From positions 20,773 to 84,772 of the IMG/VR virus record IMGVR_UViG_3300001533_001295: DNA of 64,000 nucleotides. The stretch is one strand, 5' to 3'. This DNA comes from a virus. The notes beneath the pieces were generated by a model that was given only the letters and a program-made list of their open reading frames with translations, ran no database searches and had not been told where the DNA came from. Shown one piece after another: positions 7,415-30,614 of the stretch (the first letter of the stretch is position 1; each line of letters begins with the position of its first letter). The position numbers were made by a program, and so were the translations under genes.

Positions 7415-10400
7415 TAACGAAGACATCGCGCTTACTTTAAACCAACCTGCTAAGCCTTTAGTTAGTTATCGAGCTGTAGACGACGCAGAAGTTCTGCGTG
7501 AAAACGTATATCAAAAAGCGTTAAATGCGGCTAAGTCTATACAGCCGCTGCAGTACGGTAAGTTTCAGCTAGCTCTAACTGACGTAGACTATGAGGACTC
7601 TCCTCAACCTACCAAGAGAGATCAGACCACAGCTTTACTTGGGCGTAATAGTATAACTCGCCGGCTGAGAGGTACTTGGTCTCTGCAAGATACTCAGACC
7701 GGTGAGACGGTTGATCAGCGTAAGCAGATCATAGCTAACGTGCCGCACGTTTTACATGACGGAAGTATCGTCATGCGCGGTACTAGGTATGCCTCCGGTA
7801 TTCAACAGCGTCTTAGGCCTGGCGTTTATACTCGTGTACGTAAAAGCGGTGAGCTAGAAGCTCACGTTAACGCTAAGGTAGGTACAGGTCCCAGCCACAG
7901 GTACGTCTTGGAGCCTGAGACAGGTAGGTTTTTACTTAATATTGGTAACAGTAAGATACCTTTGTCTAATTTATTAGACGTACTAGGAGTAGATAGAAAA
8001 CGTGTCGAAGACGTCTGGGGCAAAGAACTCACCGCCGTAAACTACGGTAAGCAGGATCCTAAAGCCTTAAATAAACTGTACGACAAGTTTGTCCCTAATA
8101 GGCTTAGAAACAAAGACGACCTCAGTAACTCTGAGGCTATGCGTCAGAAAATTTCTGATGTATTTAATAACATCGGCTTAGATCAAGGTGTATTGAGCCA
8201 GACTGTTAATTTACCTACAGAGCATCTAAGCCCTGAGGTAATTCTAGCTGCGACGAGTAAGATACTTGAGATATCTAAGCAGCAAGAAGATAAGGACGAC
8301 CGAGATCATCCAGGCTTCGCAACATTCCACGATCTATCTGATCTGATCGCTGAAAGAATTAGCAACGATCACGGCGGCGTCAGACGCCAGTTGATGTACA
8401 AGATAGCTCAAAAAGGCAACTTAGCTAATCTTCCGTCAGGTTATCTAGACAAGCAAATAAATAGCGTAATATTCGGTTCAGGTCTTGCTGCAGCTGTAGA
8501 AGAAACCAACCCGGCCGACATACTAGATAGAATAACTAAAGTAACTAGGTACGGTGAGGGTGGTTTACCCTCTACGCAATCAACTCCGTCTGAAGCTAGA
8601 AATGTAAATCTAGGTCAGTTCGGCTTCATAGATCCTGTGCGAACGGCTGAGTCGCTTAGAGTTGGTGTAGACGTTAACGTAGCAAATCCTACGTTCATAG
8701 GTAGCGATAATAAGCTCTACGCTAATTTTATAAACCTAGGAAACGGTCAAACAGAGTTACACTCGCCTGACGAGTTATTTAACTCTTCTTTAGTTATAGG
8801 TCCAAGCTCTATAGAAGGTTGGGACTCGGCTGTAGTAGGCGGCAAATTACAACTTGTAAGGCAGGGGGAAGGTGATTTTAAGTTACCGTCCTATGACAAC
8901 GCCTTTAATATATTAAGCCAAATACTTCCTATGAAGTCGGCGTCGTTCGCTCAGCGTCTATCTATGGGCGCTAGAATGTCCCAGCAGGCTTTACCTGTGG
9001 AAGGAGCTGAAGCTCCTTTAGTGCAAGCAGCTGTGCCAGGAACAGGTGGCGCGGAGAGTTATGAGTCTAGGATAGGTACCAAGCTGGGAGCAATCAGGGC
9101 TAAAGATAGAGGCCGGGTTCTAGCTGTAACTGATGACTATATTGAGGTCGCTTACCCAAACGGCAGTGTAGTAAAAGAAGATTTAGACTACTACAGACCT
9201 ACCGCTCGTAAGTCGTTCATACACAACACGCCGCTAGTTCAACCGGGCGATATTGTTGAGCCAGGCCAGATTTTAGCTAAGAGTAATTTTACAGACGACC
9301 AAGGCTCTTTGGCTTTTGGTAAGAACGTTAGAACAGCTCTTATACCTTGGGGTGAAAACTGGGAAGACGCTATCATCTTTAGCCAGCGCATGGCTAACAG
9401 TATGAGGTTAAACCAAGCTTATAAAAGCCATTTTGAAATAACAGATAAAGACGAGGTAGGTAAAAAGCCGTTCGTATCTGTTTTTGCTTCAAAGTACAAC
9501 AAAGACATTTTAGACACGCTTGACGATAATGGCGTAGTCAAGCCGGGCACGGTAGTTAAAAAAGGCGATCCGCTTATTTTAGCTATACGTGAGACAGACA
9601 TGACTGGCAACCGAGTACATAAAAAGCAAGCTAAGTCTTACTCAGATGCTAGTGTTACTTGGGACCACAACCATGAGGGCTTGGTAACACATATAGCTGA
9701 CTCAGGCAAAGGCTTCAGCGTTATGGTGACTACCAGTAAGCCACTTGAAGAAGCAGACAAGATTGCAGGCTTATACGGTAATAAAGGTACGGTTAGAATT
9801 CTGCCTGATGCTCAGATGCCTGTGGCTGAGGATGGTGAAATTATAGACGCGCTCATATCTCCTTTGGCGGTTATATCTAGAGGTAACTCGTCTTTCCCTT
9901 TAACGATGCTACTAGGTAAAGTCGCAGCCAAGACTGGTAAGTCTTATAAAATTGAAGACTTTACCGGCCAAGACTTCACTCAACTGGTCAAAGAAGAGTT
10001 AGGTAAAAATAAGCTTAACGCTACAGAGACGGTAACCGACCCTAACACAGGCAGGCAGATACCTGGTGTTCTTGTTGGTAATTCTTATTTAATGGCCTTA
10101 CATCACTCAGCTGAGGCTAAGTCGTCAGCTAGAAGTATTGGCTCTTACTCGGCTTCCGGAGAACCAGCTAGAGGCACTAAAGGTCAGGCTAAGCGAGTAT
10201 CGGGCCAGGAACTAGCTGCACATATGGCTCAAGGAGCTTATAAGTACAGCAGAGAATCTTCGTTGCTTAGAGGAAGACGTAACGATGACTTCTGGTCGGC
10301 TTATATGGGTGGTCACAATATAGAATTGCCTCAAGTTAATGAAGTATATGAGGGATTTTTAGACCGACTTAAAGGTATAGGTATAAACCCGGTAAAGTCA

Positions 10401-17644: not shown

Positions 17645-19585
17645 GTGATATTCGAAGAGCAGCTCGCACGCAAGCCGGACCATTATCCCTGGACTGAAGA
17701 ATTTGTGCGAGCTATGTGGGAGGGACATTGGACAGACAGAGAATTTAATTTTTGCTCAGATATACATGATTTTAGAACTAATTTAACCGAGCAAGAACAA
17801 GAGATAATAGTCAGATGTTTATCGGCCATAGCGCAGATAGAAGTAGCTGTTAAGACTTTCTGGGCTAAACTAGGCGATAACTTACCTCACCCGTCTATAA
17901 GAGACATGGGGTACGTCATGGCTAACGTAGAGTGTTATGCCGAAGGAACAGAAGTATTAACTCCATCTGGTTGGTGTAATTTATTTGACGTTAAAAACGG
18001 CGACCCAATTTATCAGTACCATCCTGAAGATGGGTCTTTGTCTGAAACAAAGGCTAAAGATTCTTTTAGTAAGCCTTACAAAGGCGCGATGTTTATTTTT
18101 GGTAGTAAGTCTAACAAGTGCATGGTTACGCCCAACCACAATATGTTAGTTAGACGTATACGAAGTAATTCTTGGGAGCTGACTAAAGCTACGGCTAAAG
18201 ATCTGAAGATACATCCGTCTATTAAAATGCCAAAGACTACGTATATATCTTCAGAAAAAAAGACCGTTAATAAGCTGAGCTACATGGATAGGCTAGCTAT
18301 CGCGATACAAGCGGACGGTACAAGAGCTATGGGGTATTCTAGGCGTGGCGAGTATGTTGAGCGAGGTTCAACCGGTGGTTACACGTATCAACTTAGGTTT
18401 AGGCGTGCTCGAAAAATAGAACGCATCGAATACTTAATCAGTAATGCCGGAATAGACTACAAAAAGTACACACTTAAAGATGGTGTGACGCAGGTTTTTA
18501 ACGTTGTTTTCCCTACAGATAATGATTATAAGAATTTCTCTTGGGTTGACTTGAGTAATAAATCTACAGACTGGTGTAAAGAGTTTGTAGAAGAATTATT
18601 TCATTGGGATGGTAGTTTGCGTCAAAGAGCTTACTTCTCTAAGTACAAAGAGAATGTAGATTTTTGCCAGCATGTAGGTATTTTGGCCGGCTACCACACA
18701 ACTGTAGGGTTTACTGACGACTACAGGACAGGCCAAAATAGGCGAAAACATAGAGTTTTATTCGCCAAAAAGCCGAGTCTTTGGCGTCATATAAGTGATA
18801 TGCGTAAAGAAGAAGTTGATTACTTCGGTAGAGTTGGTTGTGTCACTGTGGACACCGGTGCGATAATGACTCGCTTAGATGGGCGAACATTTATTGCAGG
18901 TAATTGTATCCACAATTCGGCCTACGAGCGTTTATTAGAGGTTCTAGGTATTGAAGATGTATTCGAAAAGAACCTGCAACTAGAGTGGATGCAGGGGCGT
19001 GTTAAATACTTACGAAAGTATACACACAGATTTTATAAAGACAGTAAAAAACAATTTATATATGCCTTAATATTATTTACTCTTTTTGTGGAGAACGTGT
19101 CTCTCTTTAGTCAGTTCTACGTAATTAATTGGTTTGGTCGTAAAAATTTATTAAAAGACACAAACCAGCAGACGAATTACACACTCAAGGAAGAAGACCT
19201 ACACGCTAAAGCCGGCATAAAGCTTATACAGGTAATAAGAAGCGAGCACCCTGAGTTATTTGATGACGAGCTTCAAGGCCGAATACTAGATGAAGCCCGA
19301 GAAGCTTTTAAAGCCGAGTCTAAGATCATCGACTGGATGGTTAACGGCATCAAGGACGAGTTACTTTCTGCCGAGCTATTAAAAGAGTTCGTTAAGAACC
19401 GTATCAACAGCTCATTAAGTCAGATAGGGTTTGACTCGGTTTTTGATGTAGACCAGGATATACTCGCCAAGACTCTGTGGTTTGATGAAGAGTCTTTAGG
19501 TAACGGTATGACGGACTTTTTCCATGCTCGTCCGGTAGAGTATTCGAAAAAAGGCCAGAGTTTCTCCGAAGAAGATTTGTTTTAA
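17645..19585 (+). CDS. nrdB: ribonucleotide reductase class I beta subunit, intein-containing
   Basis: Ferritin-like ligands IAQIE, VE|CIHNSAY, VENVSLFSQF, EEDLH; C-terminal DFFHARPVEYSK. Confidence 0.95.
   Translation: MIFEEQLARKPDHYPWTEEFVRAMWEGHWTDREFNFCSDIHDFRTNLTEQEQEIIVRCLSAIAQIEVAVKTFWAKLGDNLPHPSIRDMGYVMANVECYAEGTEVLTPSGWCNLFDVKNGDPIYQYHPEDGSLSETKAKDSFSKPYKGAMFIFGSKSNKCMVTPNHNMLVRRIRSNSWELTKATAKDLKIHPSIKMPKTTYISSEKKTVNKLSYMDRLAIAIQADGTRAMGYSRRGEYVERGSTGGYTYQLRFRRARKIERIEYLISNAGIDYKKYTLKDGVTQVFNVVFPTDNDYKNFSWVDLSNKSTDWCKEFVEELFHWDGSLRQRAYFSKYKENVDFCQHVGILAGYHTTVGFTDDYRTGQNRRKHRVLFAKKPSLWRHISDMRKEEVDYFGRVGCVTVDTGAIMTRLDGRTFIAGNCIHNSAYERLLEVLGIEDVFEKNLQLEWMQGRVKYLRKYTHRFYKDSKKQFIYALILFTLFVENVSLFSQFYVINWFGRKNLLKDTNQQTNYTLKEEDLHAKAGIKLIQVIRSEHPELFDDELQGRILDEAREAFKAESKIIDWMVNGIKDELLSAELLKEFVKNRINSSLSQIGFDSVFDVDQDILAKTLWFDEESLGNGMTDFFHARPVEYSKKGQSFSEEDLF
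17933..18904 (+). mobile_element. intein (324 aa) with LAGLIDADG-like domain in nrdB
   Basis: CYAEGTEVLT...VTPNHNM...IAGN|C; AIAIQADG and ELFHWDG motifs. Confidence 0.92.
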
Positions 19586-19595
19586 AGGAAGCAAC

Positions 19596-22500
19596 ATGTC
19601 CGACTTCTACTGGCTTAACAATGACTCTAGGCTTTTTCTATCCCGAGGATATTTAGCCGAGGGTCAAGAAGCTGAGGATAGGCTTCTAGATATTAGTAAG
19701 AACGCTGAGAAGACGTTAGGCCCTAACTTCGCCGGCTTTGCTGATAAGTTCTATGGTTATTTAGCTAGAGGCTTCTACTCCCTAGCTACGCCGGTCTGGA
19801 CTAATTACGGAAACGATCGCGGACTTCCTGTGTCCTGCGTTGTTGGTGATACATGGATAAATACAAAATATAATGGAGGCAAACTAGCTAAAGATATAGA
19901 AATAGGAGACGAGGTTTTAACTCATAAAGGGCAATATAAAAAAGTAACAGATGTAATTTTAACAAAAAATCAAAAAGATATTTATAAAATTAAAATATCT
20001 AGCAGAATGACACCACTATACATCACTGGAAACCATTTGGTTTTAACAAATTTAGGATGGGTTAGATGTGATGAGTTAAATTCAGATTACCATCTTGTCG
20101 CTATTAACGGAGATATAGAATATATTGAGCAAGATTACGAAATAGATCTAAAACCATTTTGTAATTTTGAATCAACTATAATTGATGGTAAAATATGTAA
20201 ATTAATTACAGACAATATAAAGTATAAAAAAAGATCAAAGAACGGAGTATATGTTGATTACTACGCTACACCCAAAGAAAAAATACAAGTAGATAACGAC
20301 CTAGCTTGGGCTTTGGGGTTGTGGTTTGCCGAGGGATCCCTTAGCACTAGAGGTGGCTCACCGTGCGGAATTCGTATAACGTATAATACTAAAGACGAAA
20401 AAGAATTGGGGGATAAATGGTTCCATATAATGTCTGAAAAATTCGGCTTAAAAGGTAACATCTATGACAGTGTGTGTAATAGAAATGGAAAATCTACAAG
20501 CTGGAGTAACGCAAATATTAACTCTAATATTATAGGTAATTTTTTCGAATCTTTTGGTAAAGGATGTAAAGAAAAAACAATACCTCAATGGATTATTGAT
20601 CTACCCAAAGAAAAACTTGATCTTTTCTTAAAAGGCTTGTTGGATGGGGATGGTACAAAAACTAAAAGCAATTCCAACAGAATAACCGTAGCAAATCCTA
20701 AAATGCTGCTTCAAATATACCAGATAGGACTAAAACTTGGTTTGCAGATGTCGCTGCAAATGCAAGAAAAAGCAGGAAAATTAGCAACAACTACACATAC
20801 TTATACATGTATCTTTATATCTTATGAAACAGATAATAGAAGATCTAGCAGATTTGCTATTAAATTTCATGATGGTTTATATTACTCGAAAATTAGAGAA
20901 ATATTAAAAACAGATAAATCAGAAGATGTATATGATTTTACTGTTGAAGATGATCATTCTTTTAGCGCTGCTGGTGTCCTACTTCATAATTGCTTCAACT
21001 CACATTTGTCGGACAAAATGCAGTCTATACTATATAAGACTGCTGAAGTCGGCATGATGAGTAAGTACGGCGGCGGCACATCTGGTTACTTCGGCGACAT
21101 ACGTCCTAGAGGCGCGCCTATAAGCGTAGGCGGCACTTCTAGCGGAGCCGTACACTTTATGGAGTTGTTCGATAAAGTGGCAGATACGGTGAACCAGGGC
21201 AACTCTAGGCGCGGATCTTTCGCTGCCTACTTACCTGTAAGCCATCCCGACATACTAGAGTTTTTGCGCATAAGATCTGACGGCCATCCTATTCAGAACA
21301 TGTCGATAGGTGTAACTATCACCGACGACTGGATGAGAGATATGATTGCCGGAGACAAAGACAAGCGTAAGGTATGGGCTAAGATAATTGAGAAGAGATT
21401 TGAGAGCGGTTATCCTTATGTCGCTTTTATAGACAACATTAATAAAAACAATCCTAAAGTTTATAAAGATAAAAATTTAAGCGTAAAATCACAAAATCTT
21501 TGCGTTGCTGGAGACCAGCGGGTTGTAACTAGCCGAGGTATGCTTACAGCTAAAGAGCTGTATGAGATCGGAGGTAACTTAACACTGTTTGACAACGATA
21601 AGATTGTTAATTCAGGGCCTATGTCTCTTGTAGAACGTATGGCCGATGTCTATGAAATTGAGCTAGATAACGGCCTCACACATAAAGTTACTAGCTACCA
21701 TAAAGTTAAAGTCAGGACGTCTGGCACTTTGGATACGGTAGTTAAGACGGCCGACGTAGCTTGCTCAGATTTAAACGTAGGCGATTTAGTAGCTGTTCAG
21801 ACTAATAAAGGTCTGTTTGGTGACGTCAATAAAGAAGATGAAGCTTTTCTACTAGGCTTGCACCAATCAGAAACTGAAGATAATACGTTAACTGAAGTCC
21901 CAGACTGGATCTGGGAGTCAAACGAAGATACGCAGAGAGCATATATAAGAGGCCTACTACTTCCAAATATTGGAAGAGGGCTGCACCACCGGTCAAAGGA
22001 CTTCCTAAAAGACTTACAACTCGTACTAGTGAATTTGGGAATTAACTGTGCTTTAAAATTAAGAGAAGCTGAAGGGGTTTATACACTTTATAGTTTAGAC
22101 GATGATTTAGATAACGCCTTCCATAAAATTAAGTCTATTAATTACGTAGGCCAAGAAGACGTCTACTGCGTGACTGTAGACTCAGCAGAGCACCATTGGG
22201 TCTGCAACGGAGTCGTAACACATAACTGCGCGGAAATATCGCTCCATTCAGATGAAAAATACTCTTTTGTATGCGTGTTATCTTCTATAAACTTAGAACA
22301 CTGGGATGCTATAAAGTCTACAGACGCGGTCGAGACGCTAATATATTTCCTCGACACGGTAAACGAGGAGTTCGTCCGTAAGTCTAAGGATCTTCCTTTT
22401 ATGGAACATCCTTATAATTTCGCTAAAGACCATAGGGCTCTAGGTCTTGGGGTTTTAGGCTGGCACTCGTATCTTCAGTCTAAGATGATACCTTTCGATA

Positions 22501-23129
22501 GCTTTGAAGCTAATCTAGAGAACGTAAGCATCTTTAAGACTATATCTGAGCGCTGTAAAGCAGCTACGACTAAGCTAGCGGATGTTCTAGGTGAGCCAGA
22601 TATTCTAAAAGGTTACGGCGCGCGTAATACGCACACAATGGCGATAGCTCCTACGACATCTTCGTCTTTTATATTAGGTCAGGTATCACCTAGCATAGAG
22701 CCACTCAATAGTAACTACTTTGTTAAGCGTTTAGCCAAAGGTAACTTCACTTATAGAAATCCTTATCTAGTGGATTTACTAAAGGCTAAAAATAAGGATG
22801 ACGCTAACACGTGGCACAGCATCCTAACGCACGGCGGATCTGTACAGCATTTAGACTTTATGGACGACCATGAGAAGAACGTCTTTAAGACCTTCTCAGA
22901 AATTAGTCCTAAGCAAGTCATAATTCAAGCTGCCCAACGCCAGCAGCACATCGATCAAGGTCAGAGCTTAAACATCATGATACCGCCTGGTACTAAGGCT
23001 AAGTTAGTAAGTGATCTTATGATCTTTGCTTGGGAGCAAGGAGTAAAGAGTCTCTACTATCAGCGAAGCGCTAATCCATCTCAGCAGTTGTCTAGAGAGA
23101 TACTAAACTGCTCTGCATGCGAGTCGTAG
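19596..23129 (+). CDS. nrdA: ribonucleotide reductase class I alpha subunit with two inteins
   Basis: ATPVWTN, GLPVS|CF, QGNSRRG, SQNL|CAEI, AIAPTTSSS, KSLYYQRS, C-terminal CSAC; no obvious ATP-cone. Confidence 0.95.
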   Translation: MSDFYWLNNDSRLFLSRGYLAEGQEAEDRLLDISKNAEKTLGPNFAGFADKFYGYLARGFYSLATPVWTNYGNDRGLPVSCVVGDTWINTKYNGGKLAKDIEIGDEVLTHKGQYKKVTDVILTKNQKDIYKIKISSRMTPLYITGNHLVLTNLGWVRCDELNSDYHLVAINGDIEYIEQDYEIDLKPFCNFESTIIDGKICKLITDNIKYKKRSKNGVYVDYYATPKEKIQVDNDLAWALGLWFAEGSLSTRGGSPCGIRITYNTKDEKELGDKWFHIMSEKFGLKGNIYDSVCNRNGKSTSWSNANINSNIIGNFFESFGKGCKEKTIPQWIIDLPKEKLDLFLKGLLDGDGTKTKSNSNRITVANPKMLLQIYQIGLKLGLQMSLQMQEKAGKLATTTHTYTCIFISYETDNRRSSRFAIKFHDGLYYSKIREILKTDKSEDVYDFTVEDDHSFSAAGVLLHNCFNSHLSDKMQSILYKTAEVGMMSKYGGGTSGYFGDIRPRGAPISVGGTSSGAVHFMELFDKVADTVNQGNSRRGSFAAYLPVSHPDILEFLRIRSDGHPIQNMSIGVTITDDWMRDMIAGDKDKRKVWAKIIEKRFESGYPYVAFIDNINKNNPKVYKDKNLSVKSQNLCVAGDQRVVTSRGMLTAKELYEIGGNLTLFDNDKIVNSGPMSLVERMADVYEIELDNGLTHKVTSYHKVKVRTSGTLDTVVKTADVACSDLNVGDLVAVQTNKGLFGDVNKEDEAFLLGLHQSETEDNTLTEVPDWIWESNEDTQRAYIRGLLLPNIGRGLHHRSKDFLKDLQLVLVNLGINCALKLREAEGVYTLYSLDDDLDNAFHKIKSINYVGQEDVYCVTVDSAEHHWVCNGVVTHNCAEISLHSDEKYSFVCVLSSINLEHWDAIKSTDAVETLIYFLDTVNEEFVRKSKDLPFMEHPYNFAKDHRALGLGVLGWHSYLQSKMIPFDSFEANLENVSIFKTISERCKAATTKLADVLGEPDILKGYGARNTHTMAIAPTTSSSFILGQVSPSIEPLNSNYFVKRLAKGNFTYRNPYLVDLLKAKNKDDANTWHSILTHGGSVQHLDFMDDHEKNVFKTFSEISPKQVIIQAAQRQQHIDQGQSLNIMIPPGTKAKLVSDLMIFAWEQGVKSLYYQRSANPSQQLSREILNCSACES
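19836..20990 (+). mobile_element. intein 1 of nrdA (385 aa) with LAGLIDADG endonuclease
   Basis: CVVGDTWI...ITGNHLV...VLLHN|C; LGLWFAEG and LKGLLDGDG; more AT-rich than the flanking extein DNA. Confidence 0.93.
21501..22226 (+). mobile_element. intein 2 of nrdA (242 aa) with degenerate endonuclease
   Basis: CVAGDQRV...VTSYHKV...VTHN|C; eroded motifs FLLGLHQSE and YIRGLLLPN. Confidence 0.92.
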
Positions 23130-23320
23130 TAAACACGCAAGAAACTGGCTTAACGTCTTTAACTAGTTACGTTGAAGTCATAAGACACACAGGCCCCGTT
23201 ACTATATTTAGTAACGGGGTTTTGTTTCAACATAACCCGCTAGAAGATGCGTACAATTTTATAGACACCAGAAATAAAGTTTTTTACAGAAGCATACTTT
23301 ATGAAGTACGGCCCAAATGA
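23117..23320 (+). CDS. RxTGP-array protein
   Basis: RHTGP; overlaps the nrdA stop. Confidence 0.7.
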   Translation: MRVVVNTQETGLTSLTSYVEVIRHTGPVTIFSNGVLFQHNPLEDAYNFIDTRNKVFYRSILYEVRPK

Positions 23321-23338
23321 TGAGATATCTTTAAACCT

Positions 23339-23563
23339 ATGACTATGTTGGTAAAAATTAATTCTCTAACTAACGGTGGTAATGAAAATCCTTATCTAAC
23401 TTTAGAGTACGGTAGAAACTACAAAAACAAACATAGACAAACCGGACCTACTCAGTACATACACAACAATAACGGAATATTACTTGCTAAAAACACTTCG
23501 CATAAAATTATTTATTTTAGAGAGAAATTAGCTACAAATTGGATAAAAGAATGGCCAAGTTAA
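23339..23563 (+). CDS. RxTGP-array protein
   Basis: HRQTGP. Confidence 0.7.
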   Translation: MTMLVKINSLTNGGNENPYLTLEYGRNYKNKHRQTGPTQYIHNNNGILLAKNTSHKIIYFREKLATNWIKEWPS

Positions 23564-23766
23564 AGCCAGGCGAGGCCGGAATGCTAGTTGAAGTAAATAG
23601 TTTATCTTTTATTTACGGTAATAGTAGGTATTTAAGGTGTACAGGCCCGTCCATTTGTCGCGAAAATAGAGTGTCTTTTGATACGTGGAACTACAGTACC
23701 TTGGAAAACAGACTGAAACATGTTAAAGCCAAAGATAGAGAACACAATATCCCATGGCTCAGCTAA
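23539..23766 (+). CDS. RxTGP-array protein
   Basis: RCTGP. Confidence 0.7.
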   Translation: MDKRMAKLKPGEAGMLVEVNSLSFIYGNSRYLRCTGPSICRENRVSFDTWNYSTLENRLKHVKAKDREHNIPWLS

Positions 23767-23993
23767 CTGCGTCAGTTTACTTAAATAATTACAGAAAAAC
23801 CATGATAACCAAAACCGAAAGCCTAGTAGTTGAGGTAACTAAGGTTAGTGTTGTTTACGGCGACTACCTCAAACTGAGGTACACAGGTCCGTCAGTCTGT
23901 TTCATGTCTAGAATAACTTACGACAGAACATCTAAAAGTACTTCTAAACTAAAACATATTGACGCTAAACATAGAAAATTAACTTTCACGTGA
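23754..23993 (+). CDS. RxTGP-array protein
   Basis: RYTGP. Confidence 0.7.
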   Translation: MAQLTASVYLNNYRKTMITKTESLVVEVTKVSVVYGDYLKLRYTGPSVCFMSRITYDRTSKSTSKLKHIDAKHRKLTFT

Positions 23994-24000
23994 GGATTGA

Positions 24001-24213
24001 ATGGTTCAAATAAAAATAAGCAAAGATTCTTTAACTTATTGTTTAGAAGAAAAAAGTGAAACACGTAGCAATCGCATTTTTTTAATGCGCAGATCTACCG
24101 GGTCATCACATATAAACAATAAATATATGTGTCTACATAAATCAATTTTAAAATCTAACGATGATGTCGTTACTTTCTTCTTTAACTACAAAAAAATCTT
24201 TAACAGAGCCTAA
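24001..24213 (+). CDS. RxTGP-array protein (variant)
   Basis: RSTGS. Confidence 0.6.
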   Translation: MVQIKISKDSLTYCLEEKSETRSNRIFLMRRSTGSSHINNKYMCLHKSILKSNDDVVTFFFNYKKIFNRA

Positions 24214-24428
24214 TGAACACAGTATTTGTATTTATATCTGCTAATAAAGTATCTGTGTTTATATCTGCTGATAAAATCAAGACTAAAAGACACACGTATA
24301 TGTACTACTCTAACACCGACGGCTCAGGGCGAGTAAACTACACCGGACCAGTAGTTATGGGAGATGCGTATATAAGCGTATACAATTTTAAGTTTAAGTA
24401 TGTACGGAAAATTCCAAGTATATCGTAA
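24213..24428 (+). CDS. RxTGP-array protein
   Basis: NYTGP; short internal duplication VFISA. Confidence 0.7.
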   Translation: MNTVFVFISANKVSVFISADKIKTKRHTYMYYSNTDGSGRVNYTGPVVMGDAYISVYNFKFKYVRKIPSIS

Positions 24429-24651
24429 AATGGCTAGACATAAAAAACATACGTGTCAGGTAACCGTCTCTGAGCCGTCTGCAATTAGCACAATTATTAT
24501 TTACGGGCAGTACGCTTCATGCAGACACACCGGCCCCTCTGTGGTATCTTCTGACCACATTTGTCTAGAGTACAATGACTGTAACAACTTATATGAATTA
24601 AAAATTTGCTATTTTAGGACTACAAAAATCGAAAAGTCAATTTGTGCTTAA
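24400..24651 (+). CDS. RxTGP-array protein
   Basis: RHTGP. Confidence 0.7.
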   Translation: MYGKFQVYRKMARHKKHTCQVTVSEPSAISTIIIYGQYASCRHTGPSVVSSDHICLEYNDCNNLYELKICYFRTTKIEKSICA

Positions 24652-24660
24652 ATTTACACA

Positions 24661-24906
24661 TTGATAAGAAAAATTATGCCTCATGTAATCATTTCTAGAT
24701 ATAGTGTAATTATTTATAAAATATACGATGAAAATATGAACGATAACATCGCACTTAACTACTACTGCGGGTCCTTAACCTGTCGTCGGTATACTGGACC
24801 TGGCATAATTCGGGCTAGTAATATTTGTCTAATTTATTCTGAAGCATCAGGAGAAACTCATTTTAAGGTCTGTAAATTTAAGCTTAAGAGGGCGTCATGC
24901 TTGTAG
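24661..24906 (+). CDS. RxTGP-array protein
   Basis: RYTGP. Confidence 0.7.
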   Translation: MIRKIMPHVIISRYSVIIYKIYDENMNDNIALNYYCGSLTCRRYTGPGIIRASNICLIYSEASGETHFKVCKFKLKRASCL

Positions 24907-25142
24907 AAGTTTCTAATAATATAACAGTTTATGGTAGTTACGTAGAAGCTAGATATACTGGCCCTGCGGTATTTCGTCATGATTCGGTTTATCTAGATTA
25001 TTATATAAATTTTAAAGAACGTAATTCAGTGCAGATACAGCTAGGTAGTGCTGTTAAACCCGTAGAATGTTTTACTCAAAAAATTTGCTACTTTAAGATC
25101 AAAAAGACAAACGATCTTTTTGATTTTAGTACTAAGCAATGA
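24897..25142 (+). CDS. RxTGP-array protein
   Basis: RYTGP. Confidence 0.7.
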   Translation: MLVEVSNNITVYGSYVEARYTGPAVFRHDSVYLDYYINFKERNSVQIQLGSAVKPVECFTQKICYFKIKKTNDLFDFSTKQ

Positions 25143-25327
25143 GACTGAAGATTCAACCGTATAGCGTAACTATCGCTAAAGTAGGGATTAATAATTTCCT
25201 AAAATACTACGTCATATATAGTCCTGAAATGAGTCAGTTTAGGTATACCGGGCCAGCTATAATTTGGGCTAACATTTCTTTTTTAGACAAAATATTTGCA
25301 GCACGAGCCGCTGCCAGGATGTTTTAG
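25139..25327 (+). CDS. RxTGP-array protein
   Basis: RYTGP; ATGA overlap. Confidence 0.7.
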   Translation: MRLKIQPYSVTIAKVGINNFLKYYVIYSPEMSQFRYTGPAIIWANISFLDKIFAARAAARMF

Positions 25328-25329
25328 CG

Positions 25330-25509
25330 ATGTTTAGTGTATCTATAACGCATATAGGCTTAGGGTATGGTAATTTTATCTTAGCTAGAAATACCGGGCC
25401 TCGGTTAATAATTAAAAACTACGTCGTCTTACAGTATCTGTCTCCAGAGAAAGTCTACTGCTGTAAAATTTGCGCGCACTCAAACAAACAAAATTACTAT
25501 GCAAGTTAA
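25330..25509 (+). CDS. RxTGP-array protein (59 aa, not in ORF track)
   Basis: MFSVSITHIGLGYGNFILARNTGPRLII... Confidence 0.65.
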   Translation: MFSVSITHIGLGYGNFILARNTGPRLIIKNYVVLQYLSPEKVYCCKICAHSNKQNYYAS

Positions 25510-25645
25510 TATAAATGCTTTTAACGTGTTAATTTATGACTTCGTCAGACATACTGGGCCTTGTGCGCTAGATAATGGAAGTTTCGATTTAGATGTTTAT
25601 TCGACTGAAAACGGTTATTACGTGCAGACTTTTTGTTATCTCTAG
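25499..25645 (+). CDS. RxTGP-array protein (48 aa, not in ORF track)
   Basis: MQVNINAFNVLIYDFVRHTGPCAL... Confidence 0.65.
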   Translation: MQVNINAFNVLIYDFVRHTGPCALDNGSFDLDVYSTENGYYVQTFCYL

Positions 25646-25734
25646 TAAGCAAACAATCGACTATCCCCACTGAGTGAAAAAGCTTAGATAAGCGTAACTT
25701 TTTTAAATTCTACTTACCTGAGAACAAACACTGC

Positions 25735-25965
25735 ATGACTAATTTGAGCGTAACAGTGTCGAATATGAAGATATCGTACGGTGACTATATTTCTAGATAT
25801 CAGGTTGTTAGAGCTGGCCTTACTTTCTATAGACATACAGGACCTTATGTAGTCTCAGACAACTACGTTCTACTTGATACATACTTTCAGCAAATACTTG
25901 TAAAACTCATTACTTCCGTTAGGTGTTTAATAATATGTCTCAAATTGGTACCTTTAATAGAATGA
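25735..25965 (+). CDS. RxTGP-array protein
   Basis: RHTGP. Confidence 0.7.
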   Translation: MTNLSVTVSNMKISYGDYISRYQVVRAGLTFYRHTGPYVVSDNYVLLDTYFQQILVKLITSVRCLIICLKLVPLIE

Positions 25966-26210
25966 CGAACGTAACTAGTCACAGTGAGGACGGCTGTCAG
26001 ATAGTTCCCCAGTTAATAAAAATTTCAAAAAACGAGGTTGTTTATGGTAACAGATACTTAATTAGATATACCGGGCCTTCTATAATATACTCGATATCAT
26101 GCTGTGCAGATCTTAGTCATTTCCCAAACACGTACCGTCAAATAATTTTTGACATACGTAAAAAAAAATTATGTAGACATGAAACAGAATATAAAAAACA
26201 AGTATTTTAA
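25923..26210 (+). CDS. RxTGP-array protein
   Basis: RYTGP. Confidence 0.7.
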   Translation: MFNNMSQIGTFNRMTNVTSHSEDGCQIVPQLIKISKNEVVYGNRYLIRYTGPSIIYSISCCADLSHFPNTYRQIIFDIRKKKLCRHETEYKKQVF

Positions 26211-26442
26211 AAGACATCCTCCAATGTATAGGTTTCCAACCATAAACATGCGGCTGAAATTTAAAATTTTTGTAAAAATAGTTGATAGAAGAAATTTAAA
26301 CTACAGTTTCTTAGGAAAATACTCATTAAGAGATCACCGATTAACCGGCCCCGCCGTAATCACTAACAGATACGTTGCTTTAAAACATAATTTGTCTAGA
26401 AAATCTAAATTCTATTTTTACACTAATAAAAAATCTTTGTGA
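26149..26442 (+). CDS. RxTGP-array protein
   Basis: HRLTGPAVI. Confidence 0.7.
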   Translation: MTYVKKNYVDMKQNIKNKYFKRHPPMYRFPTINMRLKFKIFVKIVDRRNLNYSFLGKYSLRDHRLTGPAVITNRYVALKHNLSRKSKFYFYTNKKSL

Positions 26443-26472
26443 TCGTTGCTTCTTCTAAGGTAGCGCGCTTGC

Positions 26473-26673
26473 ATGTTTAAAGTAGTAGTAGATAGCTCAG
26501 GGATATGGTACTACTCACCGTTAGGGCTAGCTAAGTACACCGGTCCTTGTATAGCGGGTCGTAATTATTTTGTTTTAAAGAAAATAATAAAACTAAGAAA
26601 ACGCAATAATGGACGTAGGCCGCTGCTGCATTATAGATACGCAGTTAAATACCGTGAAATTAAAATTATCTAG
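26473..26673 (+). CDS. RxTGP-array protein
   Basis: KYTGP. Confidence 0.7.
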   Translation: MFKVVVDSSGIWYYSPLGLAKYTGPCIAGRNYFVLKKIIKLRKRNNGRRPLLHYRYAVKYREIKII

Positions 26674-26895
26674 ATGTTCCCAGTAAAGATATCACTACAC
26701 CATATAGTTTATGTCAGTACCGATGGACCAGGTCGAATAAGATACACTGGACCAGCAATTGTAGGGCGTACGTATTCATATTTATATTCGTTCCAAGAAA
26801 AATACCGTATTAGAAAAATTTATGATTTTAGGCTTAAAACAAGTTACGTATTTGCAGAGGAATTAGATGTTAAGGATAGAAGTATCGTTAAGTAG
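26674..26895 (+). CDS. RxTGP-array protein
   Basis: RYTGP. Confidence 0.7.
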   Translation: MFPVKISLHHIVYVSTDGPGRIRYTGPAIVGRTYSYLYSFQEKYRIRKIYDFRLKTSYVFAEELDVKDRSIVK

Positions 26896-27031
26896 GGTAA
26901 TTTACGTCTACGGCAGATATACCGGTCCTTCCTCAATATTTCTTCTAAGAATTTACTTAGACTCGATTAAAGAAGGACGCTATGTTGAAAAAATCTATGA
27001 TTTTATAAATAAGTCCGAGCAGATTTTTTAG
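26867..27031 (+). CDS. RxTGP-array protein (54 aa, not in ORF track)
   Basis: GAGG RBS; MLRIEVSLSRVIYVYGRYTGPSSIFLLRIYLDSIKEGRYVEKIYDF... Confidence 0.7.
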   Translation: MLRIEVSLSRVIYVYGRYTGPSSIFLLRIYLDSIKEGRYVEKIYDFINKSEQIF

Positions 27032-27036
27032 TTAGG

Positions 27037-27228
27037 ATGCAGATGATCAAGATAAAAATAGCGCCAGGTCGTGTAATGTACGACCACAGCTTATATAGGT
27101 ATACCGGTCCTTACGTAATATTTCCTAGACTAATCTTCTTAGACTCGTTTAAAGAAGAACTATATGTTCAAATAATTTATGATATTAAACGTAAATGCGA
27201 GCAAAATACGGATATGTCTGAAAATTAG
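27037..27228 (+). CDS. RxTGP-array protein
   Basis: RYTGP; LDSFKEE. Confidence 0.7.
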   Translation: MQMIKIKIAPGRVMYDHSLYRYTGPYVIFPRLIFLDSFKEELYVQIIYDIKRKCEQNTDMSEN

Positions 27229-27420
27229 ATGTTCGGCGTAAGGATAACACTAGACTGCGTAATCTACGGCACTTTAGAATCATATAGATACACCGGTCCC
27301 TCTGTAGTACGCGCTAGCGCCGCCTACTTAGACTCGATTAAAGAAGGGGGTTATGTGCAGATAATTCATGAGGTTAAACATAAATCAAAACGAACTGTAA
27401 ATTTAACTGATTATACGTAG
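27229..27420 (+). CDS. RxTGP-array protein
   Basis: RYTGP; LDSIKEG. Confidence 0.7.
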   Translation: MFGVRITLDCVIYGTLESYRYTGPSVVRASAAYLDSIKEGGYVQIIHEVKHKSKRTVNLTDYT

Positions 27421-27476
27421 TGGCACTTACTTAGACTCGATTAAAGAAGGGGGTTATGTGCAGATAATTCATGAGG
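27325..27476 (+). repeat. perfect 49-bp direct repeat (27325-27373 and 27428-27476)
   Basis: TACTTAGACTCGATTAAAGAAGGGGGTTATGTGCAGATAATTCATGAGG occurs twice. Confidence 0.9.
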
Positions 27477-27597
27477 ACCACAATCCAATATATGTTAATA
27501 GTCCGTTTAAGATGCAAACTCAGTTTAGTACGGACTTTACTATTGAAGAAATTATAAAAAGTGATGAAGTAGCGAAGTTTATGTCACGGTTTGAGTA

Positions 27598-27867
27598 ATG
27601 TTCAAATCAATAATTGCAGGTAAACGTGTAGCAGTTATTAAAGTTAGAGTTAGCTTGCGGGAAGTTAATTATTACGAATATAAGTTTAATAATTGGAAAA
27701 ACACGGGTATAAATTTTTCTAGGGATACGGGAGCTGCTTTAATGAAGCGATCTTCATCGTATTTTTGTTCCAGCGGTAGAACACTTAAAACGGTGTTTGT
27801 TTGTATGACGTTAGGAAATGGAGATAACGTTGACAAAGTCGTACAGGTGTTCCCGTCGTATGATTGA
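27598..27867 (+). CDS. RxTGP-array protein (variant)
   Basis: RDTGA. Confidence 0.6.
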   Translation: MFKSIIAGKRVAVIKVRVSLREVNYYEYKFNNWKNTGINFSRDTGAALMKRSSSYFCSSGRTLKTVFVCMTLGNGDNVDKVVQVFPSYD

Positions 27868-27894
27868 TAATCGTCTCAACGTAGAAATTCATCC

Positions 27895-28128
27895 ATGCTA
27901 GATGATATTGACAGCGACTCAGTTAATGTAGTCGTTACTGTAACGCGGTCTGGCGTTATTGACTTCTTAGTCAGAAAAAGATACACCGGACCTTACGCTA
28001 TAATTAAAGATAGCATATGGTTAATTGAGTCTCACAGAGGATCTATGTGTGACTTTACTACTGTAATTATCACTGCTAGCGATAGGCGGCGGCGCTCAGC
28101 AGGTTTCGCGAGTGAGTGTCTTGATTAA
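27895..28128 (+). CDS. RxTGP-array protein
   Basis: RYTGP. Confidence 0.7.
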   Translation: MLDDIDSDSVNVVVTVTRSGVIDFLVRKRYTGPYAIIKDSIWLIESHRGSMCDFTTVIITASDRRRRSAGFASECLD

Positions 28129-28333
28129 GGATAATCGTAATTTGGTCTACGTAATTGTTAAAGCTAACAATAAATTTAGATTTAACCTTTGCAGGTACAC
28201 AGGTGTCTGTTGTAACACACCTACGTATGCGCTACTTATGCGCCTTAACGTTAATGATGTGTACGTAGATAACATTTGCGTAAAGTACATTTCGGCGTTA
28301 ACGCACAAGATAGAAAAATCAACTCATAGCTGA
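28112..28333 (+). CDS. RxTGP-array protein (variant)
   Basis: RYTGV. Confidence 0.65.
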   Translation: MSVLIKDNRNLVYVIVKANNKFRFNLCRYTGVCCNTPTYALLMRLNVNDVYVDNICVKYISALTHKIEKSTHS

Positions 28334-28334
28334 A

Positions 28335-28598
28335 GTGTTATATATGAAATTAACGCCGTTTATAGTAGATATTTCTCCACAGCAAAAGGCTAAAAACAAG
28401 CACGTAATATTTAACTACGATAACTACAATCAATTTAGATATACTGGAGCTTGCTTAAGCACAAAAACCGACGTAGTCTTGAGAACGCCAACTTTAATAA
28501 CACCAGAGCGACCGAAAGAACTTAGACTTAAACTAATTATTGTAGAATATAAAAAAACGCAGATTTTACCAGTTGCTTATCCTTGGACTCTCGAATAA
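28335..28598 (+). CDS. RxTGP-array protein (variant)
   Basis: RYTGA. Confidence 0.65.
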   Translation: MLYMKLTPFIVDISPQQKAKNKHVIFNYDNYNQFRYTGACLSTKTDVVLRTPTLITPERPKELRLKLIIVEYKKTQILPVAYPWTLE

Positions 28599-28806
28599 CG
28601 CTAATGTAATGACGTTAGTTGTTGAAATTAGTAACACGCTACGCATATCGTATTGCGTAGATAAAAAAACTAATTTAAAAATTATCACAGAATACAGATT
28701 TACTGGGGCTGCGTTTGTAGTTCGCGGTATTTCTTATTTAAACAAAAAAAACACTTTATACTTAATACTTGACGTACGCAACAGAAAGGTAGCTGGTCTT
28801 GTGTAA
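28573..28806 (+). CDS. RxTGP-array protein (variant)
   Basis: RFTGA. Confidence 0.65.
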   Translation: MLILGLSNNANVMTLVVEISNTLRISYCVDKKTNLKIITEYRFTGAAFVVRGISYLNKKNTLYLILDVRNRKVAGLV

Positions 28807-28810
28807 GCCA

Positions 28811-28957
28811 ATGGTAATAGTAACGATTCATTACTTAGAATATAAAATTAACGCAACTTATCCGCACAGATTGCGTGTATTGTGTGCAGCTTATGAACGT
28901 ACGACTTACGGAAATTTACGCCATTATGTTAGAGATACCGGGTTATTTCTTGTTTAA
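28811..28957 (+). CDS. RxTGP-array protein, truncated variant (48 aa, not in ORF track)
   Basis: MVIVTIHYLEY...HYVRDTGLFLV-stop. Confidence 0.5.
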   Translation: MVIVTIHYLEYKINATYPHRLRVLCAAYERTTYGNLRHYVRDTGLFLV

Positions 28958-28960
28958 ACG

Positions 28961-29170
28961 ATGTGTAAGGTATTTAGTATGAATGAATTTGACGTTTTAA
29001 GCGTCGATATTTTTAGTGTCGATTATTTTATTTACGGAGATTACAACAAATACAGACACACCGGCCCCTCTGTAATTAAGAAACATGTAGTAGCTTTAGA
29101 TAAGTATGTAGCCCATCCACGCATACCAGCCAGGATTGATGCGTCTAAAAAAATTACTGATTTTAACTAA
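28961..29170 (+). CDS. RxTGP-array protein
   Basis: RHTGP. Confidence 0.7.
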   Translation: MCKVFSMNEFDVLSVDIFSVDYFIYGDYNKYRHTGPSVIKKHVVALDKYVAHPRIPARIDASKKITDFN

Positions 29171-29172
29171 GT

Positions 29173-29400
29173 ATGAAAAATATCAGAGTAACGGTAGGCA
29201 TCGATGCTAGAAAAATAGCCCACAACACAAGCATACATTTTTGTGTTTATTTTATTTACGTAAACTACGGCAACAAATACGACCGGTTTACCGGTCCTTG
29301 CGCGTCTTTTCAAGATGACACTGTCTCGATCAACAACACCGAATTAGACTTAAAGAAAAAGACAGAACGCAGTTACTTAAATTATTTTTACCGCAGATAG
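29173..29400 (+). CDS. RxTGP-array protein
   Basis: RFTGP. Confidence 0.7.
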   Translation: MKNIRVTVGIDARKIAHNTSIHFCVYFIYVNYGNKYDRFTGPCASFQDDTVSINNTELDLKKKTERSYLNYFYRR

Positions 29401-29406
29401 TAACTA

Positions 29407-29649
29407 TTAAAAAGACTTGACCTCGTTTTTATTTAAATCAACATCAGTGTTGTTGACTGAGTTACCTAAATTAGAGCAAGAGCCAAGTATAGTTATTACG
29501 CCTACGACAACTGTAACCCAAGCAGCTACTGTAGAAGGCTTGAGTACGTCTTTACCTTCTCCAGGTTCGTTTAAGTAATCTCCACCAACTACTTTGTCTA
29601 TCTTATTTACGTTGTTGATGTTTATTTTAGTGATCTTATCTCTTCGCAT
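29407..29649 (-). CDS. single-pass membrane protein
   Basis: Hydrophobic VAAWVTVVVGVITILG; last gene of a three-gene minus-strand operon. Confidence 0.6.
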   Translation of the reverse strand: MRRDKITKININNVNKIDKVVGGDYLNEPGEGKDVLKPSTVAAWVTVVVGVITILGSCSNLGNSVNNTDVDLNKNEVKSF

Positions 29650-29650
29650 A

Positions 29651-29953
29651 TCAGTCTACTTTATTATTAGTTTCTCCACCTAGATTACCTATAGAGTTTA
29701 CTCGGTCTATATCTATGTTGACGTTGGACTTGTTACTAATGATTTGTACTGAGTGAATTAAATTCTCATGCCTAGTACACAGGTGCTCAAACTTACTTTC
29801 TAACTTACCTATATCAGCTACACACCTATCTATGTTTTGTGCGTGAAATCTCATGTTAGCTTTAAGGTTAGTGATGTCTGCGTATATAGCTGCAAACTCT
29901 CCTCTAAGCTTATCTAACCTGTCTATGAGTTCTACGTATCTAGTGACGTCCAC
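29651..29953 (-). CDS. coiled-coil protein
   Basis: Heptad pattern; AAGG RBS. Confidence 0.6.
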   Translation of the reverse strand: MDVTRYVELIDRLDKLRGEFAAIYADITNLKANMRFHAQNIDRCVADIGKLESKFEHLCTRHENLIHSVQIISNKSNVNIDIDRVNSIGNLGGETNNKVD

Positions 29954-29966
29954 GACTAAACCTTAA

Positions 29967-30614
29967 CTAGCTAGAGCATAGTAAATAATGTTTTCCGTCA
30001 AACATATATTTATGTACGTGCGTGTGTATCTTACGTAGCTCATTATTACTTAAACCAACCTCCAATGTTAATTCTGCGTCATGTCTACAACTGGGTATAG
30101 CTAAAATTAGGTATAATTCTTTTATACTGTCCTCACTCAAAAACGAATTAACTTCAGACCCTACCAACTCTTCACACACCTTATTAAACTGTTCGGCAAA
30201 TTCTTGTGTCGAAAAAATTACATTTAAATTCTCGTCTATGATGATGAACTTTAAATGTGCTTCTTTTATGCCGTAGAGCGTAGTTATTGCTCGCTGGTTA
30301 GATCCATCCGCATCTGGGATGTAGCTTTCGGTTAAACCATCTATAGCTTTGTCTAAACTATCCTCTATCTTTTTTATGCGTAAATCTTCAAACACCATAA
30401 ACACACACATAAAAGCCAGAGTAGACGAGGCCACGATCGTTATAGTTATCACTAAGCTGTTGTTTTGATTTAACTCTTGCTTAGTAACCGTGTCCAAGCT
30501 AACTTCTGCTGCGTAATTAATCTTGTAGTCGAGATTAAACAACGTAATAAATAGAATACTTATGTATACTATCGTTGTAGGTATTAAGTATTTATCGAAT
30601 CCTAAAGTTGTCAT
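29967..30614 (-). CDS. two-TM membrane protein with C-terminal PAS-like domain
   Basis: Two hydrophobic helices, then FIIIDENLNVIFSTQEFAEQFNKVCEELVGSEVNSFL (PAS N-terminal pattern); no kinase domain. Confidence 0.6.
   Translation of the reverse strand: MTTLGFDKYLIPTTIVYISILFITLFNLDYKINYAAEVSLDTVTKQELNQNNSLVITITIVASSTLAFMCVFMVFEDLRIKKIEDSLDKAIDGLTESYIPDADGSNQRAITTLYGIKEAHLKFIIIDENLNVIFSTQEFAEQFNKVCEELVGSEVNSFLSEDSIKELYLILAIPSCRHDAELTLEVGLSNNELRKIHTHVHKYMFDGKHYLLCSS

Follow-up and report, generated by a model that had tools for sequence, protein, structure and literature searches.

Long tandem arrays of tiny paralogous genes have arisen repeatedly in large phages. Examples with more than 30 similar small genes are on record for the jumbo phages 121Q and G (Hua et al. 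2017, PMC5646251). Bacillus phage G carries a lineage-specific expansion of about 35 zinc-ribbon copies, for which roles as transcription factors or structural DNA-binding proteins have been suggested (Iyer et al. 2021, PMC7824862). Here we describe an array of this kind at positions 23117-29400 (+ strand) of a 64,000-nucleotide stretch of DNA from an uncultured freshwater phage, which we refer to as the window and which corresponds to bases 20773-84772 of the 84,772-base IMG/VR record IMGVR_UViG_3300001533_001295. The array is a compact example, with 27 genes in 6.3 kb, an invariant turn motif in the predicted proteins (R-x-T-G-P, of which Thr-Gly is the invariant part), and signs of copy birth and death and of mosaicism among strains.

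Like the arrays of phages G and 121Q, this array consists of dozens of co-oriented, diverged copies arranged head to tail, an arrangement that has been read as tandem duplication. With 27 intact members and two remnants, it likewise comprises at least 25 adjacent paralogues in one orientation. In contrast to the phage G zinc ribbons, the present proteins do not have the zinc-ribbon cysteine pattern. They form a different family, which has no PHROG or Pfam match, is predicted to be beta-rich and is marked by R-x-T-G-P. Furthermore, this phage is an uncultured one from freshwater whose nearest cultured relatives, judged by RNA polymerase, are only 29% identical. Because the G and 121Q arrays have already been published, the kind of array is not new, and the suggestion of an undescribed system in the initial annotation of this DNA stands only for the R-x-T-G-P family itself, which is new within a known kind and has no match in Pfam, PHROGs or the Protein Data Bank (PDB). 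The literature on phage tandem arrays and multigene families yielded analogies and nothing on an R-x-T-G-P family; the string 'RYTGP' occurred only in papers that, judged by title and opening of the abstract, are unrelated (desmoglein and major histocompatibility complex peptides, and a geminivirus).

The best mechanistic analogy for the array is tifA of phage T4. TifA (gp61.4) is an early phage protein of 85 amino acids (aa) that carries a positively charged cluster and inhibits the host defence toxin ToxN stoichiometrically, and its homologues are unequal in potency; when T4 was selected on toxIN hosts, recombination produced tandem amplification of the dmd-tifA segment (Srikant et al. 2022, PMC9391042). 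The array proteins may be compared with TifA in that they are small and positively charged and their genes tandemly amplified. However, the amplified T4 copies are identical and were formed in the laboratory, whereas the copies in this array are old, diverged and stable. No Pfam or PHROG match pointed to a sequence relation with TifA or Dmd, in libraries that were not checked for the presence of a TifA model. Related processes have been described elsewhere: a homing endonuclease promotes amplification of anti-defence loci (a 2026 paper, PMC13096335), large phages undergo accordion-like expansions (reviewed in PMC13359090), poxviruses expand K3L by a genomic accordion (Elde et al. 2012, as cited in PMC13359090), and polymorphic toxin systems have polyimmunity loci (PMC3482391, PMC3113570). 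Polyimmunity loci, poxvirus accordions and other multigene families of large eukaryotic DNA viruses would resemble the array in the way that an arms race multiplies small genes for host interaction or immunity in tandem and drives them apart. However, they concern other hosts, other folds and far larger proteins, and serve as analogies only.

The layout of open reading frames (ORFs) in the array is far from chance. We confirmed the 28 co-oriented ORFs of 48-97 aa that had been annotated initially, and there is one additional ORF of 46 aa at 27458-27598. However, the ORF at 28799-28957 ends just past the motif and fails the leave-one-out test described below, and is thus a truncated remnant, which leaves 27 intact members. 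The array does start inside the nrdA stop region, since its first ORF opens 13 nt ahead of the stop codon and overlaps the last 13 nt of nrdA. When longest-ORF starts are used, the 29 ORFs cover 6054 of 6284 nt, and the frequent overlap or abutment noted before is borne out by the 28 junctions, of which 14 are overlaps, 6 are abutments (0-3 nt) and 8 leave a larger gap. The start codon is ATG in 20 ORFs, TTG in 5 and GTG in 4, and each of the three frames and three stop codons is used. Considering ORFs of at least 48 aa, the + strand of the interval has 28, covering 94.1%, compared with 4 on the - strand, covering 9.9%; 300 first-order Markov simulations gave on average 3.5 such ORFs (maximum 9) and a cover of 9.8% (maximum 25.5%).

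The ORFs are united by their motif. The pattern R.TG[PA] occurs 23 times in the array, in 23 different + strand ORFs, and once elsewhere in the six frames of the 64 kb. In an alignment of the 28 ORFs, the initial Met and the Thr and Gly of the motif are invariant, in agreement with the earlier remark that TG is present throughout, while a Tyr and the motif Arg are at least 90% conserved. The Thr is encoded by ACC (16), ACT (6), ACA (5) or ACG (1), and the Gly by GGA (8), GGT (7), GGG (7) or GGC (6). Arg is present in 26 of the 28, from both AGR codons (AGA 17, AGG 6) and CGN codons (CGG 2, CGA 1), the other two ORFs having one Asn and one Lys; Pro is found in 22, with all four of its codons used. 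Since the first and second positions of the Thr and Gly codons are invariant in all 28 ORFs while the third positions are scrambled, the motif is conserved at the protein level, as had been proposed.

The family likeness is not limited to this motif. In leave-one-out profile comparisons, 27 of the 28 ORFs scored 13.2-48.8 bits, while the best of 20 shuffles of each scored at most 7.1 bits; judged by these scores, the likeness extends beyond the motif. The profile has 67-72 positions and can be summarized as M-x-x-V-x-[IV]-S ... [LVI]-[IV]-Y, a loop, R-[YHF]-T-G-P-[SAC]-[VI]-[IV] ... [VI]-x-L-D ... Y-V-x-K-I-x-x-[VFI]-x-x-K. It contains a single motif and about 10 conserved positions, with little information elsewhere, and the loop from Tyr to Arg ranges from about 3 to about 25 residues among copies. 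The description of the family as strongly diverged is supported. A profile search of the six frames of the whole 84.8-kb record found no members outside the array. The units of the array are listed below, with coordinates from the longest ORF and leave-one-out profile scores (LOO) in bits.

23117..23320, + strand: member 1, 67 aa, RHTGP; LOO 18.9
23339..23563, + strand: member 2, 74 aa, likely start 23345, RQTGP; LOO 13.2
23539..23766, + strand: member 3, 75 aa, likely start 23581 (GAGG 9 nt upstream), RCTGP; LOO 30.9
23754..23993, + strand: member 4, 79 aa, possible start 23802, RYTGP, nearest paralogue to member 3; LOO 35.6
24001..24213, + strand: member 5, 70 aa, degenerate motif RSTGS; LOO 16.3
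24213..24428, + strand: member 6, 71 aa, NYTGP, internal 27-nt tandem duplication; LOO 14.6
24400..24651, + strand: member 7, 83 aa, possible start 24430, RHTGP; LOO 33.8
24661..24906, + strand: member 8, 81 aa, possible start 24676, RYTGP, long variable loop; LOO 21.3
24897..25142, + strand: member 9, 81 aa, RYTGP; LOO 46.0
25139..25327, + strand: member 10, 62 aa, RYTGP; LOO 26.0
25330..25509, + strand: member 11, 59 aa, RNTGP; LOO 21.4
25499..25645, + strand: member 12, 48 aa, RHTGP, acidic with an isoelectric point (pI) of 4.1 (one of two acidic members); LOO 17.4
25735..25965, + strand: member 13, 76 aa, RHTGP, hydrophobic C-terminal tail; LOO 34.8
25923..26210, + strand: member 14, 95 aa, possible starts 25935 or 25962, RYTGP; LOO 40.5
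26149..26442, + strand: member 15, 97 aa, possible start 26248, HRLTGPAVI, a reading given earlier and found in this ORF; LOO 24.7
26473..26673, + strand: member 16, 66 aa, KYTGP; LOO 28.4
26674..26895, + strand: member 17, 73 aa, RYTGP; LOO 38.9
26867..27031, + strand: member 18, 54 aa, RYTGP, first of three recent copies (repeat family D1); LOO 37.3
27037..27228, + strand: member 19, 63 aa, possible start 27043, RYTGP; LOO 44.9
27229..27420, + strand: member 20, 63 aa, RYTGP; LOO 48.8
27407..27598, + strand: motif-less fragment holding the 46-aa ORF 27458-27598; E 0.018-0.24 with the family hidden Markov model (HMM)
27598..27867, + strand: member 21, 89 aa, RDTGA; LOO 15.3
27895..28128, + strand: member 22, 77 aa, RYTGP; LOO 16.8
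28112..28333, + strand: member 23, 73 aa, RYTGV; LOO 15.4
28335..28598, + strand: member 24, 87 aa, possible start 28344, RYTGA; LOO 29.0
28573..28806, + strand: member 25, 77 aa, possible start 28609, RFTGA; LOO 14.2
28799..28957, + strand: truncated remnant, 52 aa, RDTGL, stop 4 codons on; LOO 3.9, not above shuffles
28961..29170, + strand: member 26, 69 aa, possible start 28979, RHTGP; LOO 37.4
29173..29400, + strand: member 27, 75 aa, RFTGP, last in the array; LOO 20.4

The 46-aa ORF is the second remnant. The segment 27418-27476 is a 59-nt copy (93%; repeat family D4) of 27315-27373, which encodes the C-terminal part of member 20, and the ORF is taken as the product of a partial duplication because it has no motif and starts inside this copy. 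In member 6, the tandem duplication lies at 24216-24269 (85% identical, repeat family D12) and doubles the peptide around VF(I)SA.

Several lines of evidence bear on whether the ORFs are genes. We scored them with a codon model trained on ORFs of this phage that are 200 aa or longer, with stop codons left out so that open frames gain no trivial advantage. The model favours the reading frame in 26 of the 27 members, by a mean margin of +0.112 per codon. Among size-matched spurious ORFs it does so in only 29 of 67 (mean -0.04), and among antisense ORFs within the array in 8 of 19; segments of the training genes were assigned in frame in 263 of 265 cases. Ten close pairs of paralogues differ at 0.29-0.90 of their synonymous sites (pS), which are largely saturated, and at 0.27-0.46 of their non-synonymous sites (pN). 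The ratio of non-synonymous to synonymous rates (omega, or dN/dS) is 0.18-0.57 in seven pairs, and two pairs are too saturated to give a value. Despite this pN the frame has stayed open in 27 of the 29 units, in DNA of 35% G+C. Very probably, then, the array ORFs are coding genes whose frames are kept open and whose scaffold is under purifying selection, and these comparisons point to constraint that acts at the level of the scaffold. That the array represents a real, translated and tandemly duplicated protein family is a conclusion in which we have high confidence.

Relatives of the family were sought in several collections. Neither megablast nor blastn of the array matched any of 50,697 phage records, and tblastn of member 20 against the same records gave two chance-level matches only (E 1 and 3). 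With the 30 sequences of alignment A2, no Pfam family was matched by more than one sequence and no match was significant; no PHROG was matched by more than one, the best E being 0.071. The family profile had no match at E<=10 among PDB sequences. Against 1.84 billion representative proteins it gave 21 matches at E<=1e-3, consisting of 17 of the window's own proteins, three strain variants (P0005, P0008 and P0012) and one bacterial repeat protein of 1063 aa (P0020). The last of these was rejected as a relative: hhalign gave a probability of 14.7% over 21 columns, and its only Pfam matches are unrelated (AP205_coat and, weakly, PCSK9_C3). A word-indexed search with alignment A2 added P0023 alone. 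Thus, as far as profile similarity reaches, the family is confined to this phage and near-identical strains among the 1.84 billion representative proteins. A search of protein sets with an HMM built from the ORFs had been recommended at the outset, and its outcome is a family restricted to one phage lineage that matches no characterized family. The same picture emerges from 80 IMG/VR loci whose NrdA is 65-71% identical to the C-terminal 290 aa of the NrdA encoded here. Family members are absent from these loci (best match outside the window E 0.017), which have at most three small tandem paralogues in any one locus, and any such pair in 9 of the 80.

The array also bears traces of its growth. 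Similarity between members falls with their distance in rank, from a mean local score of 51.5 for neighbours to 30.0 at distance 20 (Spearman -0.21, p 1e-4), and three adjacent members (26867, 27037 and 27229) retain 64-78% DNA identity over 107 nt. The three DNA-similar neighbours, together with the two remnants, therefore show the birth and death of copies by unequal recombination.

Strain variation could be followed in public sequencing data, because all or part of the array is present in four runs, each from a different study. Of the sampled array words, 0.88 are found in an aquatic metagenome from 2015 and 0.87 in a freshwater-sediment metagenome from 2016, and one of these may be the source sample; small shares are found in a metagenome from 2022 and a lake-water metagenome from 2025 (runs X3 and X4). 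Pieces from X3 and X4 are 90-99% alike to the window. Among the pieces listed (27 further ones exist), those from the array differ at 48 of 1327 nt in X4 (seven pieces) and at 63 of 1724 nt in X3, while the one X4 piece listed for nrdA differs at 1 of 224 nt, which supports the view that the array evolves faster than the neighbouring nrdA, as read from these alignments. Single-base differences were compared at the codon level for the 40 that are listed, beside 59 further ones; 38 of the 40 fall inside array ORFs, and of these 13 are synonymous and 25 non-synonymous. Three one-base insertions within 10 nt in X4 sum to +3, so the frame is kept.

Individual members fare differently in other strains. 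P0023 (on a 931-bp contig) is identical to member 17 at 65 of 73 positions, with RYTGP changed to RHTGP, and P0012 (on a 710-bp ENA contig) is identical to member 16 at 60 of 66. P0005 is identical to member 20 at 53 of 56 positions, while P0008, its neighbour on the same 2619-base contig, matches member 19 at 34 of 59, the divergence lying mostly before and just after the motif, in the N-terminal half. A conserved P0005 beside a diverged P0008 therefore indicates that strains are mosaic, some members being kept and others replaced or changing fast.

Some assembled contigs depart from the window within the array. At 24374/24375, 36 different letters are present in contigs from runs X1 and X2, and the positions 23267, 25276 and 27473 are points at which several contigs diverge from the array. 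Read from these contigs, the array may have structural variants within single samples. A diversity-generating retroelement was considered as a source of variation and rejected, since the strain differences are not biased to A positions; no reverse transcriptase was seen, although no dedicated search for one was made.

The predicted proteins have a distinctive composition. The residues I, V, Y, T and F together make up 36.1% of the members and 24.5% of the phage's large proteins, whereas A, E, L and Q make up 16.3% and 26.3%, and Cys 2.4% and 1.2%, respectively. The pI is 7.8-10.9 in 25 of the 27 members, and most C-terminal tails have a positive net charge. The family profile has five short hydrophobic segments, while the grand average of hydropathicity is mostly negative. 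These properties would suit a small beta-sheet or barrel scaffold in which the G-P turn is central and the variable loop precedes it.

With regard to expression, sigma-70-like promoter sites are not in excess in the array (19 compared with 30.3 expected), and terminator-like sites number 7 compared with 5.4 expected. Many members have stop-start overlaps that would permit coupled translation. Rfam gave no match at E<=1 in 22500-30000, the motif GGTGTAWWAY has no match in the window, and a count of 9-mers in the array gaps found only a word that is part of the array's own repeat. Because intergenic space is scant and neither promoters nor terminators are in excess, we infer that the array is read as one or a few long transcripts continuing from nrdB-nrdA, with translation coupled from stop to start.

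We read the array as a family of small, basic, beta-rich proteins that arose by tandem duplication, a process that is old but still active, and that probably forms a repertoire of binders for variable host targets; to this reading as a whole we give somewhat less than an even chance. Repeated tandem duplication by unequal recombination (an 'accordion'), followed by strong divergence, would have given the two remnants and the 27 genes, whose products are micro-proteins of about 50-90 aa. The array would be transcribed as one long transcript and translated mostly by stop-start coupling. The conserved positions would maintain a small beta scaffold shared by all copies, each copy would owe its own specificity to its variable loop and surface, and the copies could be made early or mid infection to bind or inhibit, stoichiometrically, host targets that vary, for example defence effectors or toxins. 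It is from the combination of a shared scaffold with a variable loop and surface that a repertoire of binders or inhibitors is proposed. As a statement about function, which leans on analogy, such a repertoire is held a shade more tentatively still; it is nonetheless the most probable of the readings that we compared. Several observations weigh against it. The youngest pair of paralogues (26867 vs 27043) has an omega of 0.93, which speaks for weak constraint outside the roughly 10 conserved positions, and dN/dS calculated separately for the parts split at the motif gave ratios of 0.43-1.20 and no clear pattern. Similarly, the strain ratio of 13 to 25 is, among the listed differences, only mildly below the neutral expectation. 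A recognizable Shine-Dalgarno sequence precedes only some array starts; the share is not very different from that of the phage's other genes, since a crude pattern found one in 22 of 61 large ORFs, some of whose starts are uncertain. None of the sequencing runs that hold array words is listed as RNA. ESM Atlas models of two members have a predicted local distance difference test (pLDDT) score of 0.38 and 0.41, which as a modelling outcome fits disordered or orphan proteins; because these scores are too low, the structural neighbours of the models were disregarded, and a feature search gave no usable match. Finally, nothing in evidence ties the array to any defence system.

Other explanations were weighed as well. 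If all copies did the same job through the R-x-T-G-P scaffold and had been amplified for amount of product, as with T4 tifA or poxvirus K3L, the differences between copies would be drift, as the concentration of constraint in about 10 shared positions, the youngest pair and the strain ratio would suggest, and tandem amplification for dosage is documented for tifA (PMC9391042). However, most pairs are old (pS 0.65-0.90) and yet nearly all units are open in DNA low in G+C, in which ORFs arising at random are short; accordions maintained for dosage would be expected to collapse or decay, and the length of the loop varies severalfold between copies, so we regard dosage as unlikely. We assign a similarly low probability to small basic nucleic-acid-binding proteins, whether regulators acting with the phage RNA polymerase or structural DNA- or RNA-binding proteins. 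Their basic pI and mostly positive tails would fit, as would a phage that has its own multisubunit RNA polymerase and an array placed among genes for nucleotide metabolism and transcription, and the zinc ribbons of phage G offer a precedent (PMC7824862); but no DNA- or RNA-binding family was matched in Pfam or among PDB sequences, and a structural role would leave the divergence and strain turnover unexplained. That the copies are non-functional, decaying duplications is very unlikely. The low-confidence models, the lack of homologues outside the lineage, the weak overall constraint and the two remnants, which show that copies die, could all be cited for decay, but it is hard to reconcile with 27 open frames at the observed pN, with motif residues that are invariant over scrambled third positions, and with the codon-usage signal.

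Another explanation starts from resemblance to a known repeat. The initial annotation had likened member 15 to the beta-hairpin repeat of viral proteins whose motif reads H-R-x-D-G-P-A, and single hairpin modules akin to such MORN-like repeats, one per gene, could co-assemble into varied hetero-oligomeric binders. MORN-type repeats (PF02493, PF07661) and the array proteins do share a short G-P-containing turn between hydrophobic strands, and the spacing Y-(7)-R-x-T-G-P-[SA]-[VI]-[VI], seen in many members, is reminiscent of the HRxDGPA repeat. However, MORN-type and HRxDGPA proteins consist of tandem 23-residue units with an Asp in the motif, whereas each array protein has one motif, with Thr. 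Thr replaces this Asp in all 28 of the present ORFs, only one of the 28 has His ahead of the Arg, and Ala or Ser follows the motif Pro only in some members. There is one motif per ORF (23 strict matches in 23 ORFs), within about 55-80 residues that contain five hydrophobic segments, and no run of units of about 23 residues. None of 30 members matched the two MORN models in Pfam at E<=10, and PF02493 had no match at E<=1 in the six frames of the 84.8-kb record. The proposed link is thus not supported by these motif and profile comparisons, and hairpin modules appear marginally less probable even than decay. Least probable of all are precursor peptides of a ribosomally made, modified family, in which a conserved recognition part and a variable core would be served by one enzyme; prochlorosins, for example, have many precursors for one modifying enzyme. 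The ORFs are indeed short, with a conserved N-terminal two-thirds and variable C-terminal tails, and Cys is enriched. Nevertheless, the tails have no shared Cys/Ser/Thr pattern, and Pfam and PHROGs revealed no radical S-adenosylmethionine, YcaO or LanM-type enzyme in 16 flanking ORFs (two sets of 10 neighbouring ORFs, four of them common to both, being part of the record's genes). A binder repertoire therefore ranks above dosage, nucleic-acid binding, decay, hairpin modules and modified peptides, and the remaining probability falls to functions other than these.

Should the copies prove to inhibit specific defence or toxin proteins of the host, the phage would have in this array a ready-made library of small binders, and 'accordion' amplification, as observed with T4 in the laboratory, would have here a natural end state. 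If they are instead hairpin modules, 27 tiny genes would supply a combinatorial recognition repertoire. The genes are short enough for synthesis and screening.

The array is set in a nucleotide-metabolism and replication part of the phage genome, directly behind nrdB-nrdA. CheckV rates the 84,772-base record as 42% complete, and the genome is not closed; the full phage genome is therefore probably about 200 kb. Upstream of the array are nrdB and nrdA, the latter annotated from its translation as follows.

19596..23129, + strand: nrdA, ribonucleotide reductase large subunit, 1177 aa, with intein-like inserts

The nrdA translation has two such inserts, each starting with Cys and ending in HN followed by Cys, and in nrdB (window 17645-19585, 646 aa) Ribonuc_red_sm is matched in two stretches with a weak Intein_splicing match between them. 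Thus, both genes look intein-interrupted, as read from their translations. The phage is rich in inteins and homing endonucleases more generally. At 43441-45663 of the window, a subtilase of 740 aa (Peptidase_S8, E 3.5e-31) is split by an intein (Intein_splicing, E 4.7e-16) with a LAGLIDADG homing endonuclease (LAGLIDADG_3, E 2.3e-13).

Downstream of the array are part of an RNA polymerase, a dCMP deaminase and a metallophosphoesterase. The 3' end of the array meets convergent - strand genes, of which there are three in 29407-30614: they encode a protein of 80 aa with a hydrophobic C-terminal segment, one of 100 aa with a weak Baculo_PEP_C match, and one of 215 aa with a sub-threshold PAS match (21.3 bits compared with a cut-off of 22.6).

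The phage encodes its own multisubunit RNA polymerase, one gene of which lies at 7386-11804 of the window and is a fusion of 1472 aa. No close relative was found for the N-terminal part of this gene. Among the 50,697 phage records, full-length relatives of the RNA polymerase occur only in Salmonella phage Arash and Vibrio phages D69, D181 and D148. They are about 29% identical, and the matches to D181 and D148 are each in two pieces around a homing endonuclease. The G+C content across 22000-30000 is 0.35-0.36, compared with 0.38-0.50 in other parts of the window, and at codon positions 1, 2 and 3 it is 0.37, 0.35 and 0.34 in the array, compared with 0.50, 0.40 and 0.40 in the phage's large genes.

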